Of a stretch of 64,000 bases of DNA, positions 54,676 to 64,000 are shown piece after piece. How positions within the stretch are numbered: the stretch's first letter is position 1; the number at the start of each line of letters is the position of its first letter. A model generated the notes under the pieces. The model had not been told where the DNA came from, searched no databases, and saw nothing but the letters and a program-made list of their open reading frames with translations. Source of the stretch: Candidatus Latescibacterota bacterium (GTDB taxonomy: Bacteria; Latescibacterota; UBA2968); assembly GCA_965204745.1 (NCBI GenBank), contig OZ242010.1:3456001-3520000 (forward strand). Direction: 5' to 3'. The position numbers were made by a program, and so were the translations under genes.

Positions 54676-54783
54676 GTCGTGTTGACATTCACCCGTGCGT
54701 GCCCAACCGCCCAACCGTGTCTGAATCGCGGATTAAACGGATTAGGGGATTACGCGGATTACCCCCCACAACCCTACCGCAAA

Positions 54784-55013
54784 ACCTATCCCCCCGGCCC
54801 CCTTTCCTACAAGGAAAGGGGGAGCGCATGGCTTTCTTAAAGGGTTGTATCCCTGGCTGCTTTGATGGCTTTGGGCGAATGGAGCACGCCATAGAACCCC
54901 AAACCCCCCTCGCGCAATCCTTCGCAAAACCTTTCGCCATTCCCCCTTCCTCGCAGGCACAGGCGTAGCCTACAACGAAGCGTAGCGAGTAACGGGGCCA
55001 GGGGGTAGGTCCC
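54784..55013 (-). repeat. REP/MITE cassette (3180-type, single unit)
   Basis: Reverse complement of the 3180-3370 unit. Confidence 0.85.
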
Positions 55014-55066: not shown

Positions 55067-55096
55067 TTGACAAATAATAGCGCGATTCCCTATATT
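55067..55096 (+). promoter_or_regulatory. sigma70 promoter TTGACA-N18-TATATT
   Basis: Upstream of the giant surface-protein gene. Confidence 0.6.
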
Positions 55097-55339
55097 TTTT
55101 TCGTTCACCATTGCGATTTTGAACGCGGAGAAAAAGCCGCGCCCGGTCTGTGCGACAGCTTTGCAAAGGAGGATTCAGATGATCACCGCCATTTTCAGCC
55201 GCTGTTTGAACCTCATTTGGCGCTATGTTTTTCCCGCCTGTCCCACCGCGAAAATTGGCGTTCATGACGCCCATCTCCGTCTTGGAGCGCGGTTCTATTT
55301 TATTGCAAAACAATCTTTTAGGATGATCAGTACAGTGTA

Positions 55340-55354
55340 CCCCCCCCCCCCCCC
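55340..55354 (+). repeat. C15 homopolymer tract
   Basis: Directly visible, 16 nt upstream of ATG 55371. Confidence 0.95.
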
Positions 55355-55370
55355 TCGGAGGGAGACTAAA

Positions 55371-58300
55371 ATGGTGCGCTTTATTTTTCGTTTTCTGTCC
55401 CTTCCAACATGGATCGCCGTGTTGGTCATGCCCTTGCTGATCGCCCCCGCGACAGCGCAGATGACGCCCTCGAATACCGATACGACCCTCAGCGCGCTGA
55501 CCCTCGCGCCAGGCACTCTGCTTTCCACATTTGCATCCGATAAAACCACCTACGCATTTGCCGTTCAATCCGGCGCGACAGAGATCACCGTGACCGCGAC
55601 CCCAACCAATTCGGGGGCAACTGTCGCCATCACGCCGGCCGATGCCAACCCGGCCAGCGGCCACCAAGTCGACGTATCTACCCTGCCGGTCAGCATTCGC
55701 ATCGTGGTTTCCCCCGCTACGGGAACGACCACGCTGACCTATACGGTCTCTGCCGGCAATTTTACCGACTACGACACCGATGGCGACAACCTCATTGAAC
55801 TCGGTGCTGGGCAAACCGGGCTGGCGCAACTGCATGCCATGCGCTGGGACCTCAATGGCAATGGTTTCATAGACGCCAGTGCCACGACCAGCGATACGAC
55901 CGCCTACAATACCGCTTTCTCCAACCGGCCGCCGGGGATGGGTTGCGAGACCACCTGTATCGGCTACGAACTGACGGCGAACCTAAACTTTGACGAGAAC
56001 AACGACAACGAAATCACCGTAGCAGACACCACCTACTGGAACAGCGGCGCAGGCTGGGCGCCCATCGGCAGCAGTGCGACGAAATACACCGGCACCTTCC
56101 ACGGCAACGACAATACCATCTCCAACCTGTTTATTGACCGCTCTGCCGCCAGCAAAACCGGGCTATTCGGCTATGCCGAGGGCAACACGATCCGCAATTT
56201 GAGCCTGGTGAACGCCAATGTGACCGGCTCTGCTGAAACCGCCGTCCTTGTTGGCGAAGGCAACAATCTACAGCTCATGCACATCCGCGTCACCGGACGG
56301 GTCAGCGGGTTTGCACGAAGCGGCGGCTTGGTGGGCAGGCTGGCGCACGGCAACTCGACCATTACCGCCTGTCGTTCCGAGGTGGACGTCACTGGGTCTA
56401 ATATAAGCATCGGCGGCTTGGTGGGCTGGAGTAGCGGCACGATAACCGCTAGCTATGCTACCGGTGCAGTCAGCGGCGATGGTTACGTCGGCGGCCTGGT
56501 GGGCTTCCACGGCAACACCGGCAACCCAAAGGCCATCATACGCGCCAGCTATGCCACCGGCGTAGTCAGCGGCAACTCTGCCATCGGTGGCCTGGTCGGT
56601 GCCAACTTCTATTCCAGCACGATAACCGGTAGCTATGCCATCGGCCCGGTCAGTGCTAATTCACTGGTTGGTGGCTTGGTCGGTACCAACAATAATTCAT
56701 CAATTACCCACAGCTACTACGATAGAACCACCTCTAGACGTGGCGACACCGGACGCGGTGCTCCCCAGACCACCGCCGAGCTCCAAGGCCCCACGGGTTA
56801 TACCGGCATCTACATGACGAATTGGGACCTGAACCTGGACGGGCAACCGGGCGGCGATGATCCGTGGACCTTTGGCAAGACGGATCAGTATCCGGTGTTG
56901 AAGTATGCCGGCATGGACACCACCGCGCAGTATAACTTGCAACCGCCGAGCATTCCGACAAGTGTGACCGTGACGATAATAGCGGACACCTTGGACGTGC
57001 GGTGGCGTGGGGTGAGTGGTGCGACGGGGTACAAGGTGCAGTGGAAATCCGGCACGCAGAGCTACGATACCGCCTCGCGTGAGGCGACCGTCACGGGGAC
57101 GCGCCACAAGATTCCCAACTTGACGTTTGGGACGACCTACACAGTGCGTGTCATTGCCACCAAAATCGGTGTGCGCGATGGCACACCCTCAGCAGAGCAG
57201 ACCGGCGTTCGCCCCAGGCTGGGCAGTCCGACTGTGATGGTGGCGGCGAAGGTGGACACGCTGACCGTGACTTGGAATGCGGCGAACGGGGCGACCGGCT
57301 ACAAAGTGCAGTGGAAATCCGGGTCAGCGACTTATCCCACCTCCGATCTGGCGTTGGCCACGCGCGGGCAAGCCACAATCTCTGATGGGAGCACCACGAC
57401 CTACAAAATTTCTGGGCTGACCACAGGGACGACCTACACGATTCGCGTCATCGCCACGAGTACCAATATCAATGTAGCCGACAGTGCCCCTTCGGAGGAA
57501 GTCATGGTGACCTTGGCGACCACCAAACCCACCAATGTGCGCGTGACGCCGGGGCCGGTCCAACTCATTGTGGCTTGGACCGAGGCAACCGGCGCGACGG
57601 GCTACAAGGTGCAGTGGAAGTCCGGTGGACAAAGCTACAACACCTCTTCTCGCCAGGAGACGGTCTCTGGAGGGAGCACCACGACCTATACAATAGAGAA
57701 CCTGACTTTTGGCACGACCTACACGGTGCGCGTCACTGCTACCCTGGCAGGTGGGACCGATAGTAATCCCTCGGACGAGGTCATGGGCACGCCCCAAGGG
57801 ATCGATTACGATGGCGATGGCAATGGCCTCATCGATATTGAGACGCTGGCGCAACTGCATGCCATCCGCTGGGATCTCAACGGCGATGGTGCCATAGACG
57901 CAAGTGCCTCAACCAGCGATACGACCGCCTACAACGCCGCCTTTCCCAACCGAGACACCACCAGCAACGTCCGGATGGGTTGCCCTTCTGGGACCTGCAC
58001 CGGCTACGAACTGCTCAACAACCTAAATTTCGACACCGACGGGAGCGGGAGCGTAACCTCTGACGACACCTACCCCAACTGGACGCCCATCGGAGGCACC
58101 TACTCAACCACGTTCAAGGGCAATAACAAGACCATCTCCAACCTGCACATCAACCGTGGCAGTTGGGATTATGTTGGGCTGTTCGGCCGTGTCAGCGGCA
58201 ACATTTCCGGTCTGGGTCTGAAAAGTGTCAATGTAAGAGGCAGAAATCGAGTGGGTGGGTTGGTCGGTAATCAGGTAGGGGGTCGCATCCTGGGCTGTTT

Positions 58301-61300
58301 TGTCACAGGTCGCGTTGAGGGTACTGGTGACCATGTGGGCGGTTTAGCGGGTCGTTCAACCGGCAATAATACCGTCATCGCGGCCAGCTATGCCAATGCT
58401 ACGGTGAGTGGGACGAAGGAGAATGTCGGCGGTTTGGTGGGCGTCCTAGATGCTACGGTGATAGCGTCCTACGCCATCGGGCCGGTGACTGGATGGACGA
58501 GGGTAGGCGGTTTGGTGGGGCTCTTGGGCATTTCTCCTAGTTCGATTAAGACCAGCTATGCCACGGGGACAGTCACCGGGAGCCGACAATCATCCATCCA
58601 TCTAGGCGGATTGGTTGGGAGTGCACAATCCGGAGTGTCCCATAGTTACTGGGATAGGGAAAGTAGCGGTCACTCATCCAGTGCTGGTGGCACGAGCCAG
58701 ACCACCAGCGAGTTGCGGTCAGAAACGGACTACGACGGCATCTACGCCAACTGGAATGTGGATGTCGATGGCAGGCCTGGCAGTGACAACCCGTGGACCT
58801 TTGGTGCGGCGGATCAGTATCCCGTGTTGAAATATGCCGGCATGGACACCACCGCACAATTTGCAATGCAACCGCCGGGCATTCCGACCAGTGTGACCGT
58901 GACGGTGCAAGCGGACACCTTGGACGTGCGTTGGCGTGCGGCGAGTTATGCGACGGGGTACAAGGTGCAGTGGAAAGCCGGCGGGCAGAACTACGCCGTC
59001 TCGCGTCAGGCCATCACCACGGATACGCGCTACAAGATCGCCAACTTGATCGGCGGGACGACCTACACAGTGCGTGTCATTGCCACCAAGACCGGTGCGC
59101 GCGATGGCATGCCCTCGGCAGAGCAGACCGGCGTTCCCTCCGCACTGAGCAGACCGGCTGTGATGGTGGCGGCGGATGTGGACACGCTGACCGTGACTTG
59201 GAATGTGGTGAACGGGGCGACCGGCTACAAAGTGCAGTGGAAATCCGGGTCAGAGACTTATCCCAACGCCGATCTGGCGGCCGCCTTGCGCGGGCAAGCC
59301 ACCATCGTAGGCGGGGGCACCACGATCCACAAAATTTCTGGGCTGACCGCAGGGACGACTTACACGATTCGCGTCATCGCCACGAGTACCAATATCAATG
59401 TAGCCGACAGTGCCCCTTCGGAGGAAGTGACCGTGCTGGGCATTCCGGCTGTGATGGTGGTGGCGAAGGTGGACACGCTGACCGTGACTTGGAACGCGGT
59501 GGACGATGCAACCGGGTATAAGGTGCAGTGGAAATCCGGGTCAGAGACTTATCCCAACGCCGATCTGGCGTTGGCCACGCACGGGCAAGCCACTATCGCT
59601 GACGGGGGCACCACGACCTACGATATTTCTGGGCTGACCGCAGGGACGACCTACACGGTTCGCGTCATCGCCACGCGTACCAATATCAGTGCCCTCTCGG
59701 CAGAGCAGACCGGCGATCCCCTGTTGGGTAGCCCGACGGGTGTGGATGTGAGTGCGAAGGTGGACACGCTAACCGTGACTTGGAATGTGGTGGACGATGC
59801 AACCGGGTATAAGGTGCAGTGGAAATCCGGGTCAGCGACTTATCCCGTCTCCGATCTGGCGTCCGTCACGCACGGGCATGCCACAATCTCTGACGGAGGC
59901 ACCACGACCTACGATATTTCTGGGCTGACCGCAGGGACGACCTACACGGTTCGCGTCATCGCCACGCGTACCAATGTAGCCGACAGTACCCCCTCGGAGG
60001 AAGTGACCGGCGTTCCTCTGCTGGGCAGTCCGGCTGTGATGGTGGCGGCGAAGGTGGACACGCTGACCGTGACTTGGAATGTGGTGGACGATGCAACCGG
60101 GTATAAGGTGCAGTGGAAGTCCGGGTCAGAGACTTATCCCGCCGCCGATGAGCAGTCCGCCACGCGCGGGCAAGCCACCATCGCAGGCGGGAACACCACG
60201 ATCCACAAAATTTCTGGGCTGACCGCAGGGACGACCTACACGGTTCGCGTCATCGCCACGCGTACCAATGTAGCCGACAGTGCCCCCTCGGAGGAAGTCA
60301 TGGTGACCTTGGCGACCACCAGGCCCACCAATGTGCGCGTGACGCCGGGGCCGGGCCAACTCATTGTGCGTTGGACCGAGGCAACCGGCGCGACGGGCTA
60401 CAAGGTGCAGTGGAAGTCCGGTGGACAAAGCTACAACACCTCTTCTCGCCAGGAGACGGTCTCTGGGATGAGCACCACGACCTACACGATAGAGAACCTG
60501 ACGCTTGGCACGACCTACACGGTGCGCGTCATTGCTATCCTGTCAGGTGGGATGGATAGCACGCCCTCGGACGAGGTCATGGGCACGCCCTCAGGGATCA
60601 ATTACGACAGCGATGGCGATGGCCTCATCGACATTAAGACGCTGGCGCAACTGCATGCCATCCGCTGGGATCTCAACGGCGATGGTGCTGTGGACGCAAG
60701 TGCCTCGTCCAGCGATACGACCGCCTACAACGCCGCCTTTCCCTACCGAGACACCACCAGCAACGTCCGGATGGGTTGCCCTTCCGGAACCTGCACCGGC
60801 TACGAACTGCTCAACAACCTCGACTTCGACACCGACGGGAGCGGGAGCGTAACCTCTGACGACACCTACCCCAACTGGTCGCCCATCGGAGGCACCTACT
60901 CGGCAACGTTCAAGGGCAATAACAAGACGATCTCCAACCTGCACATCAACCAGGGCAGTTGGAATGATGTTGGGCTGTTCTCCCGTGTCAGCGGCAACAT
61001 TTCCGGTCTGGGGCTGAAAAATGTCAATGTAAGAGGCAGAGAACGAGTGGGTGGGTTGGTCGGTAATCAGGTGGGAGGCCGCATCCTGGGCTGTTTTGTC
61101 ACGGGTCGCGTTGAGGGTACTCGTAACTCTGTGGGCGGTTTAGCGGGTGAATCAAGCGGCAATAATACCGTCATCGCGGCCAGCTATGCCAATGCTGTGG
61201 TCTCCGTAGGGCATATTCGTGCAGGGGCCGGCGGTTTGGTGGGCAAACTAAGTGCTACGGTGATAGCGTCCTACGCCATCGGGCCGGCGAGTGGACATTC

Positions 61301-64000
61301 CAGGGTAGGCGGTCTGGTGGGGCAGTTGGGCATTTCTCCTAGTTCGGTTAGTACCAGCTATGCCACGGGGACGGTCACTGGGCGCTACCATGACTCCAGC
61401 CAACTAGGCGGATTGATCGGGCATGCACAAGCCGGAGTGTCCCATAGTTACTGGGATAAGGAAAGTAGCGGTCGCTCATCCAGTGCTCGCGGCACGGGCC
61501 AGACCACCAGCGCGTTGCGGTCGGAAACGGATTACAACGGCATCTACGCCAACTGGAATGTGGATGTCGATGGCAGGCCTGGCAATGACGCTCCGTGGAC
61601 CTTTGGCGCGGCGGATCAGTATCCCGTGTTGAAATATGCCGGCATGGACACCACCGCACAATTTGCAATGCAACCGCCGGGCATTCCGACAAGTGTGACC
61701 GTGACGGTGCAAGCGGACACCTTGGACGTGCGTTGGCGTGCGCCGAGTAATGCGACGGGGTACAAGGTGCAGTGGAAATCCGGCGCGCAGAACTACGACA
61801 CCTCGCGTCAGACGACCGTCACGGGGACGCGCTACAAGATCGCCAACTTGATCGGCGGGACGACTTACACAGTGCGGGTCATTGCCACCAAGGCCGGTGT
61901 CCGCGATGGCCGGCCCTCGGCCGAGCAGACCGGCGTTCCCCTGCTGGGCATTCCGACTGTGATGATGGTGGCAGCGAAGGTGGACACGCTGACCGTGACT
62001 TGGAATGCGGTGAACGGGGCGACCAGCTACAAAGTGCAGTGGAAATCCGGGTCAGAGACTTATCCCGCCGCCGATGAGGAGTCCGCCACGCACGGGCAAG
62101 CCACTATCGCTGGCGGGAGCACCACGATCCACAAAATTTCTGGGCTGACCCCAGGGACGACCTACGCGATTCGCGTCATCGCCACGCGTACCAATGTAGC
62201 CGACAGTGCCCCTTCGGAGGAAGTGATCACCCTTCTCACGCTGGGTAGCCCAACGGGTGTGGAGGTGAGTGCGAAGGTGGACACGCTGACCGTGACTTGG
62301 AATGCGGTGCCCCTCGCAACCGGGTATAAGGTGCAGTGGAAATCCGGGGCACAGACTTATCCCACCTCCGATCTGGCGTTGGCCACGCATGGGCAAGCCA
62401 CCATCGCAGGCGGGAACACCACGATCCACAAAATTTCTGGGCTGACCACAGGGACGACTTACGCGATTCGCGTCATCGCCACGCACACCACAACGGCCGG
62501 CAACAGTGCCCCTTCGGAGGAAGTCATGGTGACCTCGGCGACCACCAGGCCCACCAATGTGCGCGTGACGCCGGGGCCGGCCCAACTCATTGTGGCTTGG
62601 ACCGAGGCAACCGGCGCGACGGGCTACAAGGTGCAGTGGAAGTCCGGTGGACAAAGCTACAACACATCTGATCGCCAGGCGACGGTCTCTGGGATGAGCA
62701 CCACGACCTACACGATAGAGAACCTGACTTTTGGCGCGACCTACACGGTGCGCGTCACTGCTACCCTGGCAGGTGGGACCGATAGCGATCCCTCGGACGA
62801 AGTCATGGGCACGCCCCAAGCGATCAATTACGACAGCGATGGCGATGGCCTCATTGACATTAAGACGCTGGCGCAACTGCATGCCATCCGCTGGGATCTC
62901 AACGGCGATGGGGTCGTCGCCGATAATGATACCACGAACTACAACGCCGCCTTTCCCAACCGAGACACTACCAGCAATGTCCGGATGGGTTGCCCTTCCG
63001 GAACCTGCACCGGCTACGAACTGCTCAACAACCTTGACTTTGACGAGAATGGCGACAGCGAAATCACTTCAGCAGACGCCACCTACTGGGACAGCGGCTT
63101 CGGCTGGCTACCCATCGGCACAAACGCCGCCAGATACACCGGCGATTTCAAGGGCAACGGCTACACTATCGACAACCTGACCATCAACCGACCCGCTGTC
63201 GTTGAAGTGGGATTATTCGGCAATGCCGACACCGCCTCCCGCATCGAGTCCGTCGGCGTAACCAATGCCAGTGTTGCGGGAGGCGAATATGCCGGCGCTC
63301 TGGTCGGTGCCCTGCGCGGCACAGTCGTCGCCTGCTACTCCACCGGCAACGTTTCGGTGACGACTAGGACCGCCGGCGGACTGGTCGGATGGACGCCCAA
63401 CGCGATTACCTCAAGCTACTCCACCGCATCCGTCAGCGGCCCTGAGCACGTCGGCGGACTGCTGGGAGCAAGCCAAGGCGGCACCGTAACGAACTCCTAC
63501 TCCATCGGCATGGTTACCGGCACCGGCAGTTCTCCACTCATCGGCGGGTTGATAGGCTCCGGCACGGGCGGCACCGCAAGCTACTGGGACACCCAAACCA
63601 GCGGCTGTACATCCGGCGGCAGCAACGGTTGCACAACCAGCGCCGGCGGTGGCGGCGTTACCGGACTGACGACCAGCGAGCTCATAAGCCCCACCACCTA
63701 CGGTGCCACCAGCAACGACACCTACTACGGCTGGAACGCCAACCTCGACGGACAACCCGGCAACGATGATCCGTGGACCTTTGGCACGACGAATCAGTAC
63801 CCGGTCTTGAAGTATGCCGGCATGGACACCACCGTGCAATTTCAACGCCAACCCGCGATAGTGATGTTGACACTGATGCCCTCGTCGATCTCGGAAAGCG
63901 GCGGGATGAGTACCGTGACCGCGACGCTGACACGGTCGTGGAGCACGGCGACGACGATCACGGTGCGGCCTGTGACCGGTGCTTACACGGTGGGGATGGA
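55371..64000 (+). CDS. Giant secreted repeat protein (>2,870 aa): cadherin-like beta-sandwich, 4 GLUG-type blocks, 13 Fn3 repeats; runs off the window (alternative start 55179)
   Basis: Absent from the ORF track (no stop in window); same frame at start and end; signal peptide ..APATAQ; TLSALTL..F...TTY; 13 YKVQWK copies; 4 LAQLHA(M/I)RWDLNG blocks with VGGLVG motifs. Confidence 0.88.
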   Translation, partial: MVRFIFRFLSLPTWIAVLVMPLLIAPATAQMTPSNTDTTLSALTLAPGTLLSTFASDKTTYAFAVQSGATEITVTATPTNSGATVAITPADANPASGHQVDVSTLPVSIRIVVSPATGTTTLTYTVSAGNFTDYDTDGDNLIELGAGQTGLAQLHAMRWDLNGNGFIDASATTSDTTAYNTAFSNRPPGMGCETTCIGYELTANLNFDENNDNEITVADTTYWNSGAGWAPIGSSATKYTGTFHGNDNTISNLFIDRSAASKTGLFGYAEGNTIRNLSLVNANVTGSAETAVLVGEGNNLQLMHIRVTGRVSGFARSGGLVGRLAHGNSTITACRSEVDVTGSNISIGGLVGWSSGTITASYATGAVSGDGYVGGLVGFHGNTGNPKAIIRASYATGVVSGNSAIGGLVGANFYSSTITGSYAIGPVSANSLVGGLVGTNNNSSITHSYYDRTTSRRGDTGRGAPQTTAELQGPTGYTGIYMTNWDLNLDGQPGGDDPWTFGKTDQYPVLKYAGMDTTAQYNLQPPSIPTSVTVTIIADTLDVRWRGVSGATGYKVQWKSGTQSYDTASREATVTGTRHKIPNLTFGTTYTVRVIATKIGVRDGTPSAEQTGVRPRLGSPTVMVAAKVDTLTVTWNAANGATGYKVQWKSGSATYPTSDLALATRGQATISDGSTTTYKISGLTTGTTYTIRVIATSTNINVADSAPSEEVMVTLATTKPTNVRVTPGPVQLIVAWTEATGATGYKVQWKSGGQSYNTSSRQETVSGGSTTTYTIENLTFGTTYTVRVTATLAGGTDSNPSDEVMGTPQGIDYDGDGNGLIDIETLAQLHAIRWDLNGDGAIDASASTSDTTAYNAAFPNRDTTSNVRMGCPSGTCTGYELLNNLNFDTDGSGSVTSDDTYPNWTPIGGTYSTTFKGNNKTISNLHINRGSWDYVGLFGRVSGNISGLGLKSVNVRGRNRVGGLVGNQVGGRILGCFVTGRVEGTGDHVGGLAGRSTGNNTVIAASYANATVSGTKENVGGLVGVLDATVIASYAIGPVTGWTRVGGLVGLLGISPSSIKTSYATGTVTGSRQSSIHLGGLVGSAQSGVSHSYWDRESSGHSSSAGGTSQTTSELRSETDYDGIYANWNVDVDGRPGSDNPWTFGAADQYPVLKYAGMDTTAQFAMQPPGIPTSVTVTVQADTLDVRWRAASYATGYKVQWKAGGQNYAVSRQAITTDTRYKIANLIGGTTYTVRVIATKTGARDGMPSAEQTGVPSALSRPAVMVAADVDTLTVTWNVVNGATGYKVQWKSGSETYPNADLAAALRGQATIVGGGTTIHKISGLTAGTTYTIRVIATSTNINVADSAPSEEVTVLGIPAVMVVAKVDTLTVTWNAVDDATGYKVQWKSGSETYPNADLALATHGQATIADGGTTTYDISGLTAGTTYTVRVIATRTNISALSAEQTGDPLLGSPTGVDVSAKVDTLTVTWNVVDDATGYKVQWKSGSATYPVSDLASVTHGHATISDGGTTTYDISGLTAGTTYTVRVIATRTNVADSTPSEEVTGVPLLGSPAVMVAAKVDTLTVTWNVVDDATGYKVQWKSGSETYPAADEQSATRGQATIAGGNTTIHKISGLTAGTTYTVRVIATRTNVADSAPSEEVMVTLATTRPTNVRVTPGPGQLIVRWTEATGATGYKVQWKSGGQSYNTSSRQETVSGMSTTTYTIENLTLGTTYTVRVIAILSGGMDSTPSDEVMGTPSGINYDSDGDGLIDIKTLAQLHAIRWDLNGDGAVDASASSSDTTAYNAAFPYRDTTSNVRMGCPSGTCTGYELLNNLDFDTDGSGSVTSDDTYPNWSPIGGTYSATFKGNNKTISNLHINQGSWNDVGLFSRVSGNISGLGLKNVNVRGRERVGGLVGNQVGGRILGCFVTGRVEGTRNSVGGLAGESSGNNTVIAASYANAVVSVGHIRAGAGGLVGKLSATVIASYAIGPASGHSRVGGLVGQLGISPSSVSTSYATGTVTGRYHDSSQLGGLIGHAQAGVSHSYWDKESSGRSSSARGTGQTTSALRSETDYNGIYANWNVDVDGRPGNDAPWTFGAADQYPVLKYAGMDTTAQFAMQPPGIPTSVTVTVQADTLDVRWRAPSNATGYKVQWKSGAQNYDTSRQTTVTGTRYKIANLIGGTTYTVRVIATKAGVRDGRPSAEQTGVPLLGIPTVMMVAAKVDTLTVTWNAVNGATSYKVQWKSGSETYPAADEESATHGQATIAGGSTTIHKISGLTPGTTYAIRVIATRTNVADSAPSEEVITLLTLGSPTGVEVSAKVDTLTVTWNAVPLATGYKVQWKSGAQTYPTSDLALATHGQATIAGGNTTIHKISGLTTGTTYAIRVIATHTTTAGNSAPSEEVMVTSATTRPTNVRVTPGPAQLIVAWTEATGATGYKVQWKSGGQSYNTSDRQATVSGMSTTTYTIENLTFGATYTVRVTATLAGGTDSDPSDEVMGTPQAINYDSDGDGLIDIKTLAQLHAIRWDLNGDGVVADNDTTNYNAAFPNRDTTSNVRMGCPSGTCTGYELLNNLDFDENGDSEITSADATYWDSGFGWLPIGTNAARYTGDFKGNGYTIDNLTINRPAVVEVGLFGNADTASRIESVGVTNASVAGGEYAGALVGALRGTVVACYSTGNVSVTTRTAGGLVGWTPNAITSSYSTASVSGPEHVGGLLGASQGGTVTNSYSIGMVTGTGSSPLIGGLIGSGTGGTASYWDTQTSGCTSGGSNGCTTSAGGGGVTGLTTSELISPTTYGATSNDTYYGWNANLDGQPGNDDPWTFGTTNQYPVLKYAGMDTTVQFQRQPAIVMLTLMPSSISESGGMSTVTATLTRSWSTATTITVRPVTGAYTVGM

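Follow-up and report, generated by a model that had tools for sequence, protein, structure and literature searches.

A candidate poly-C contingency locus with a putative leader reading frame upstream of giant secreted-protein genes in a Latescibacterota genome

A window of 64,000 nucleotides from the genome of a Candidatus Latescibacterota bacterium (contig OZ242010.1, positions 3,456,001 to 3,520,000) carries an uninterrupted run of 15 C nucleotides between a short leader open reading frame (ORF) and the start codon of a gene for a giant secreted protein. Our preferred reading, in which we place modest confidence, is that this C15 tract is one of 24 hypermutable poly-C contingency loci in the genome that would act through a translated leader. 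The same architecture recurs upstream of 24 paralogous genes, the leader frame is kept open in every copy compared, and tract lengths differ both between paralogs and between assemblies. From these observations we infer that the tracts slip within the population and that each resulting frame has its own expression level.

A first-pass annotation, made from the sequence of the window, had proposed that the tract is a phase-variation switch with three states (fusion, coupled re-initiation and occlusion). It described a frame that opens with AGGAGG-ATG at 55179, crosses the C15 tract and continues into ATG 55371, and every element it named is present in the sequence (Table 1). The two start codons share a frame, with the translation ...MISTVYPPPPPRRETKMVRF..., and the leader ORF extends to 55370 at C15. 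The frame arithmetic also agrees: C15 gives fusion, C16 gives a stop at TAA 55367-55369, and C14 gives a frame that reads across the start. ATG 55371 likewise has the Shine-Dalgarno (SD) sequence that had been attributed to it, GGAGGGAG at 55357-55364.

The poly-C module and its copies in the genome

The host genome, labeled G000, is a metagenome-assembled genome (MAG) on a single contig of 5,482,115 bp with 56.5% G+C. Its runs of C or G become rapidly scarcer with length (1697 of length 6, 189 of length 7, 9 of length 8, 7 of length 9 and 3 of length 10), and a second mode of 30 runs then spans lengths 12-25. By our own calculation from base composition, about 0.06 runs of at least 15 are expected, whereas 27 are seen, and the C15 tract is far beyond chance length. 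The distribution has two modes separated by a nearly empty range at lengths 8-11, suggesting that the long tracts are maintained.

Common flanks, which can be aligned over about 290 nt upstream, surround 24 of the 30 long runs, and 23 of these 24 tracts are at least 15 nt long. The occurrence of leader and poly-C before surface-protein genes, whose recurrence the first-pass annotation had marked for checking, is found 24 times in this genome, with the window copy included. The module has a constant order: a TTGACA promoter, a hairpin, an AAGGAGG-type SD, the leader ATG (GTG in one copy), the leader ORF (50 codons, or 54 in some copies, range 50-54), a 25-nt box that terminates in GTACAGTGTA in the 24 copies, the C tract (C12-C25), a purine-rich SD, the main ATG 14-19 nt 3′ of the tract, and a conserved signal peptide. 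The TTGACA element and an A/T-rich −10 region align across the 24 copies. No second promoter with acceptable −35/−10 spacing was found beside the tract when the sequence was read by eye.

A hairpin is predicted at the same site of the 5′ untranslated region (UTR) in most of the 24 copies, with stems that vary by subfamily (GCGCGG/CCGCGC, GCAGGCA/UGCCUGC and GCCGGU/ACCGGC). RNAalifold did not recover it from the alignment, and in the window copy the minimum free energy structure favors an alternative fold over the 55124..55141 hairpin. In the two frames other than that of the leader, the 25-nt box carries stops (TAG and TGA), and it contains the palindrome GTACAGTGTAC.

The genes that follow the 24 tracts code for proteins of 59-6292 amino acids, intact or truncated, and 20 of them exceed 1000 amino acids. 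Together they total 61,537 amino acids, or 3.4% of the genome, and their products are secreted proteins of fn3/GLUG/cadherin/Calx-beta type. The protein encoded in the window has 13 fn3 stretches together with GLUG, cadherin-like and Calx-beta domains, and a weak dockerin-like match that falls below the Pfam cut-off. That this giant secreted protein is adhesin-like, as in the earlier label of giant adhesin, is judged from domain content and composition alone. Two tract-bearing copies, at G000 positions 276197 and 4491927, have main ORFs of only 59 and 128 amino acids, and their gene bodies are probably broken.

Several further sequence features were observed in the genome. The palindrome GTACANTGTAC adjoins the tract (window 55330-55340) and occurs 24 times in the genome, always within modules; its central base is A instead of G in two related genomes, G018 and G016. 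This palindrome might bind a protein or influence slippage. Outside the module there are six more long C/G tracts, which have unrelated flanks and may be further contingency loci. Four of these are at G000 positions 732472 (G21), 1578675 (C18), 1833000 (C19) and 4540232 (G16), and the other two form an inverted pair, 3250395 (C13) and 4295687 (G13), within two copies of one repeat. At about G000 1466780-1466920, a direct repeat resembling those of clustered regularly interspaced short palindromic repeat (CRISPR) arrays, GTTTCAATCCGCTCCCCTCACGGATGTAAGGGGAGATAG, borders a spacer whose first bases are A8 G10. Immediately 5′ of the promoter in the window, three short dispersed repeats occupy 54715-55010, one of which is the hairpin CCCCTTTCCT-ACAA-GGAAAGGGG. 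Sampled 21-mers from these repeats are present in 60-93 copies in the genome and have very high depth in each of the four metagenome runs examined. The repeats look like elements of the repetitive extragenic palindromic (REP) or miniature inverted-repeat transposable element (MITE) type.

Table 1. Parts of the module in the window copy, in window coordinates
Feature	Position	Strand	Remark
Sigma-70-like promoter, TTGACA, 18 nt, TATATT	55067..55096	+	11/12 consensus matches
5′-UTR hairpin, CGCGG / A-rich loop / CCGCG	55124..55141	+	Predicted fold
Leader SD, AAGGAGG	55166..55172	+	6 nt 5′ of leader ATG
Leader ATG	55179-55181	+	
Leader ORF up to tract, MITAIFSRCLNLIW...FYFIAKQSFRMISTVY	55179..55339	+	53 codons plus TA of a TAC codon
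Near-invariant 25-nt pre-tract box, CTTTTAGGATGATCAGTACAGTGTA	55315..55339	+	Alignment of module copies
Poly-C tract, uninterrupted C15	55340..55354	+	
SD of giant gene, GGAGGGAG	55357..55364	+	6 nt 5′ of ATG 55371
TAA ending leader at C16	55367..55369	+	One base 5′ of main ATG (-4)
Main start codon (55371-55373) and Sec-type signal peptide, MVRFIFRFLSLPTWIAVLVMPLLIAPATA, then Q	55371..55457	+	29 residues; cleavage site placed by eye from the AxA rule
TGA ending leader at C14 after crossing main start	55438..55440	+	+67
Giant secreted-protein gene	55371..64000	+	3285 aa in total; extends past window end

Coding constraint in the leader

Comparison of the leaders, which covered 34 long-tract modules from three species (39 leaders for the stop counts), supports the view that the leader ORF is real. 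The leader frame has no stop codon in any of the 39 leaders, versus 110 and 52 stops in the other two frames. Distances from the leader start to the tract (149, 152, 155, 161, 182 and 92 nt) differ by multiples of three only, and the insertions and deletions are of +3, +6, +12, +33 and −57 nt. Upstream of the leader start, 32 of the 34 long-tract modules have a purine-rich stretch of 5 nt or more that contains GG. The two modules scored as lacking a leader SD, at G000 positions 4671035 and 5385980, are ones for which the script assigned no start.

The pattern of substitution points the same way. Among the 31 copies of exactly 50 codons, the ratio of nonsynonymous to synonymous polymorphism (pN/pS) is 0.32 over codons 2-12, 0.96 over codons 13-33 and 0.65 over codons 34-50, and the shifted control frames give 0.84 and 0.93. 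Third positions vary most in codons 2-12. The low ratio at the beginning of the leader argues that the peptide start M-[IL]-x-A-I-F-x-R-C-x-N-L is under protein-level constraint, whereas the middle appears to be kept open but otherwise free, and the last part appears to be conserved mainly as nucleotides. That the leader is a real ORF, as the first-pass annotation had assumed, is therefore supported by an open frame in 39 of 39 copies, by its in-frame indels and by this ratio.

A strong SD and an open frame in all 39 leaders would also be expected if the leader ATG were simply the true start of the gene. The leader would then be the front of a long pre-sequence, and the tract would be a classical on/off frameshift switch in which only an in-frame length yields protein, on the pattern of the Neisseria opa and pilC repeats. 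However, the second ATG is precisely where a full signal peptide starts, and it has a strong SD in front of it in long-tract and short-tract copies alike and in two of four copies with deletions. The linker between tract and ATG is identical in copies that are in different frame states, which argues that it is conserved as nucleotides, for its SD, and not as codons. Pfam searches with the leaders returned nothing meaningful, and none of 31 members matched the ESPR family (PF13018) even at E values up to 10. An ESPR-like character, suggested by a resemblance in I-F/Y-R...N, is therefore not supported. Additional evidence on both sides of the on/off switch comes from the copies described in the next section, and we regard it as quite unlikely overall.

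A different possibility is that tract length acts on the RNA regardless of frame, as a length-dependent rheostat working through SD pairing, Rho loading on the C-rich RNA, targeting by a G-rich small RNA or EF-P-dependent stalling on polyproline. The guanines of the main SD are predicted to be paired (mean P = 0.83, with 0.60 due to pairs with tract C's; 32 of the 34 modules entered the calculation, since in two the first ATG after the tract is not the gene start), and the window copy gives P = 0.89. Genes for EF-P and Rho are present in the genome, and tracts of C12-C25 encode 4-8 prolines. An RNA-level precedent is Helicobacter pylori, where small RNAs target homopolymeric G-repeats of 5′ UTRs, as cited in one report (PMC12721329). 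However, an RNA-level mechanism leaves the kept leader frame, its SD, the in-frame indels and the adjacent stop unexplained. A conserved fold across the leader is also not supported: RNAalifold gives −3.4 kcal/mol, the single-sequence z score is −0.55, and Rfam has no match to the leader at E values up to 1. Such an effect is not exclusive of a contingency locus, and we consider it unlikely.

In the same RNAalifold model, CGCUGU in leader codons 7-9 pairs with ACAGUG just 5′ of the tract (alignment columns 159-164 with 312-317, or approximately 55199-55204 with 55332-55337 in the window). One of these pairs covaries (CG in 12 sequences, UA in 9 and UG in 9), and the pairing may be due to chance.

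Frame states, locked copies and a possible mechanism

As assembled, the 24 long-tract copies comprise 10 in which the leader is fused to the gene, 9 in which it stops adjacent to the main start, and 5 in which it reads over that start. Every copy has both a fusion frame and a frame with a stop at −7 to +1 of the main ATG, usually as an ATGA overlap. Where this overlap is impossible, in the ATGG family, TAA at −4 takes its place. The window copy reaches the adjacent-stop state only at C16. A read-over frame, ending at +67 to +182, exists in 20 of the 24 copies, and the geometry of fusion, adjacent stop and read-over is found again in G018. The presence of the adjacent stop in all 24 copies also speaks against an on/off switch.

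In thirteen more leader copies of G000 the tract is short, interrupted or deleted, and these copies appear to be locked in one state. Eight of them combine an intact leader with a short or interrupted tract (three fused, four adjacent-stop and one read-over), one has a broken leader, and four carry deletions, all of which join the leader in frame to the gene. The three fused copies have ORFs of 1922, 1577 and 2912 amino acids when counted from the leader ATG. Two of the deletions, at G000 4580245 and 183254, have removed the tract, the SD and the main ATG, so that the leader runs into the hydrophobic core of the signal peptide. Both copies retain intact ORFs, of 1760 and 6938 amino acids, for which the leader ATG is the only possible start. 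Along with the open frame and the in-frame indels, these two ORFs are indirect evidence for translation of the leader. The four adjacent-stop copies present the reverse situation, with ORFs of 1554-3777 amino acids for which the main ATG is the only possible start.

The in-frame deletions and the three fused copies are what a gene that begins at the leader ATG might leave behind, and they favor the on/off switch. In contrast, the four copies whose leader stops before the main ATG are difficult to reconcile with it. Taken together, the deletion copies and the locked adjacent-stop copies argue that, provided these genes are functional, each of the two starts is required by some members of the family. 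On the same proviso, a leader-extended pre-protein would be tolerated. These natural fusions suggest that the fusion state is productive and not a distinct "off" state.

If the tract is a contingency locus, slipped-strand mispairing would alter its length, and the length would set the frame in which ribosomes from the leader ATG reach the giant gene. When in frame, they would make a pre-protein with a long N-terminal extension. In the second frame, a stop (TAA, TGA or an ATGA overlap) at −7 to +1 of the main ATG would favor termination and reinitiation. In the third, ribosomes would run 67-182 nt across the start out of frame, blocking initiation and leaving the 10-kb mRNA bare. Because pairing between the C tract and the G-rich main SD is predicted, translation of the leader would also unmask this SD, and the 4-8 prolines encoded by the tract may pause ribosomes.

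Carried to its full extent, this scheme would be a dedicated translational gearbox. Slippage would select among three outcomes (extended pre-protein, coupled re-initiation and occlusion), with polyproline pausing and SD unmasking in addition, before 24 giant eukaryote-like adhesion proteins, giving combinatorial shuffling of the surface coat in an uncultured sponge symbiont. We advance this complete version only tentatively, and it is rather doubtful that all of its parts will hold.

Several observations weigh against a three-state contingency locus, and some of them revise the design originally proposed. Twenty of the 24 copies, and modules of a second species, show the three-state geometry, but there is evidence against a strict version of it. 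In four of the 24 copies a second adjacent-stop frame takes the place of the read-over frame, so the frame there could change only the isoform. Moreover, a locked read-over copy at G000 2363803 (C6) keeps an intact 3769-amino-acid ORF, which does not fit the idea that read-over means "off". The 10/9/5 split of states is indistinguishable from uniform. Consensus tract lengths in a MAG might be wrong by a base or two, and the as-assembled frame states are therefore provisional. Paralogs share ancestry, so that counts across copies are not independent. Slippage by RNA polymerase, or +1 slippage by ribosomes at CCC-C, on runs of this length could blur the frame encoded in the DNA and make the switch leaky. 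Finally, MutS1 and MutL are both present in the genome, in contrast to Campylobacter and Helicobacter. A lack of mismatch repair was for this reason rejected as the cause of the long tracts.

Distribution, length diversity and relation to known systems

The module has a narrow distribution. An exact scan for the box followed by ten C's across the genomes of 185,579 species found 10 places in two Latescibacterota MAG chromosomes. Among 41 genomes (G000 and 40 relatives), three match, including these two chromosomes as G016 (one match) and G018 (eight matches). A profile built from 31 leader peptides matched four of 168 genomes of the phylum, with 37 matches in G000, 15 in G018, 4 in G016 (one of them strong) and 1 in G026 that is marginal (E = 0.0018). 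Within the genus, the module is confined to 3 of the 21 genomes searched. The N-terminal module of the giant proteins was matched 135 times in G000, 22 times in G018 and one to three times in four others of these 21 genomes. The two genomes richest in leaders thus also hold the largest expansions of the gene family, indicating that module and expansion go together. Metagenome contigs of the Joint Genome Institute gave no match to the pattern and no relative of the leader alignment. The 24 metagenome runs listed as containing DNA of the window are from sponge and marine sources, with no RNA data set among them.

Paralogous tracts in G000 range from C12 to C25 between nearly identical flanks, and those of G018 range from C16 to C28. 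A search of a large protein collection with the 64-amino-acid leader recovered 18 small ORFs, at least four of which are G000's own. Four others are close homologues that share 46-50 of 50-54 residues with a G000 leader and include the proline run. All four imply a tract length other than that of the nearest G000 copy: C16 for P0002 (C15, the window copy), C15 for P0009 (C25), C11 for P0011 (C15) and C16 for P0012 (C22), these lengths being deduced from peptides of unproven orthology in a length range that admits unfused forms only. One metagenome run, X10, provides a 181-nt contig over 55321-55505 that has five substitutions and four fewer C's. The contigs of four metagenome runs break at the repeated module. 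The proposal of a phase-variation tract therefore gains support from the 24 paralogous modules and from the differing lengths of relatives in other assemblies.

The opposite view is that there is no switching. The tracts would be static or slowly drifting relics of a 5′ module that was repeated, perhaps by duplication or conversion, or would be artifacts of assembly consensus. All lengths do come from assemblies, MutS and MutL are intact, and 13 copies have lost or shortened their tract, each of which is consistent with a static module. However, lengths from 12 to 25 between almost identical flanks, similar modules of C16-C28 in two other independently assembled species, the length differences in four of four close homologues, and the bimodal distribution of run lengths are not readily accounted for in this way. 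We judge an absence of switching to be very unlikely, and we continue to favor a contingency locus that acts through the leader.

To our knowledge, phase variation by slippage has been described almost exclusively in host-adapted pathogens. Here, an entire family of giant surface proteins in an uncultured phylum carries one standard module of the kind expected of a switch, and it is notable for how many loci there are, how long the tracts are and which host lineage has them. The layout is uncommon as well, with a conserved leader that ends in the tract and is followed by a second start. It would add a case in which one repeat chooses between two starts and three ribosome fates. If the tracts switch, variable surface coats might be part of life in a sponge, by evading phagocytosis, varying adhesion or escaping phages. 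If the full set of translational outcomes also proves correct, a non-pathogenic symbiont of an early-branching animal would possess a system resembling antigenic variation. In full-text literature searches, no publication turned up that treats phase variation in Latescibacteria or a homopolymer tract within or at the end of a leader ORF. The only paper containing both "Latescibacteria" and "phase variation" appears to concern flagellins.

Known systems share individual parts of this arrangement. The Neisseria opa (CTCTT) and pilC (poly-G) genes carry repeats in the region coding for the signal peptide, and one frame in three gives the full-length protein. As in these genes, the slippage tract of the module sits at the very beginning of a surface-protein gene, either preceding the export signal or inside it. 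However, those genes have a single start, whereas the tract here is followed by an entire signal peptide that has an SD and an ATG of its own. The Salmonella mgtP and mgtL leader peptides, which are translationally coupled or proline-rich, provide another parallel. Both there and here a short upstream ORF with its own SD would control access to the downstream start, with proline codons as a pause site. The mgtP/mgtL system senses physiology through a fixed proline run, whereas the length of the run here is set by a hypermutable DNA tract.

The lic1 locus of Haemophilus influenzae is a multiple-start translational switch in which tetranucleotide repeats lie inside the ORF after alternative ATGs. 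In hmw of the same species, a heptanucleotide simple sequence repeat in a long 5′ UTR acts on transcription and on RNase III processing (PMC12721329). Like lic1 and hmw, the module has a repeat upstream of the main coding body, might have more than two expression levels, and has a long leader whose RNA features may matter. However, neither lic1 nor hmw is known to have a leader ORF that ends in the tract. A Campylobacter ribosome profiling study deals with ordinary in-gene tracts (PMC11955535).

Among the reports consulted, the closest parallel is phase variation at the 3′ end ("C-terminal" phase variation) in Neisseria gonorrhoeae, for example at NGK_1211 and NGK_1212, where the upstream gene can become fused to the one that follows it (PMC5320596). 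In both cases the repeat is near the 3′ end of the upstream coding sequence, whose tail switches, or here would switch, among three frames, one of which fuses it to the next coding sequence. The module differs in having a dedicated leader of 50-54 codons without a known product function and a much longer tract (C12-C25). It also has a second SD and ATG within 14-19 nt, keeps a stop at the downstream start, and is repeated before 24 paralogous giant genes.

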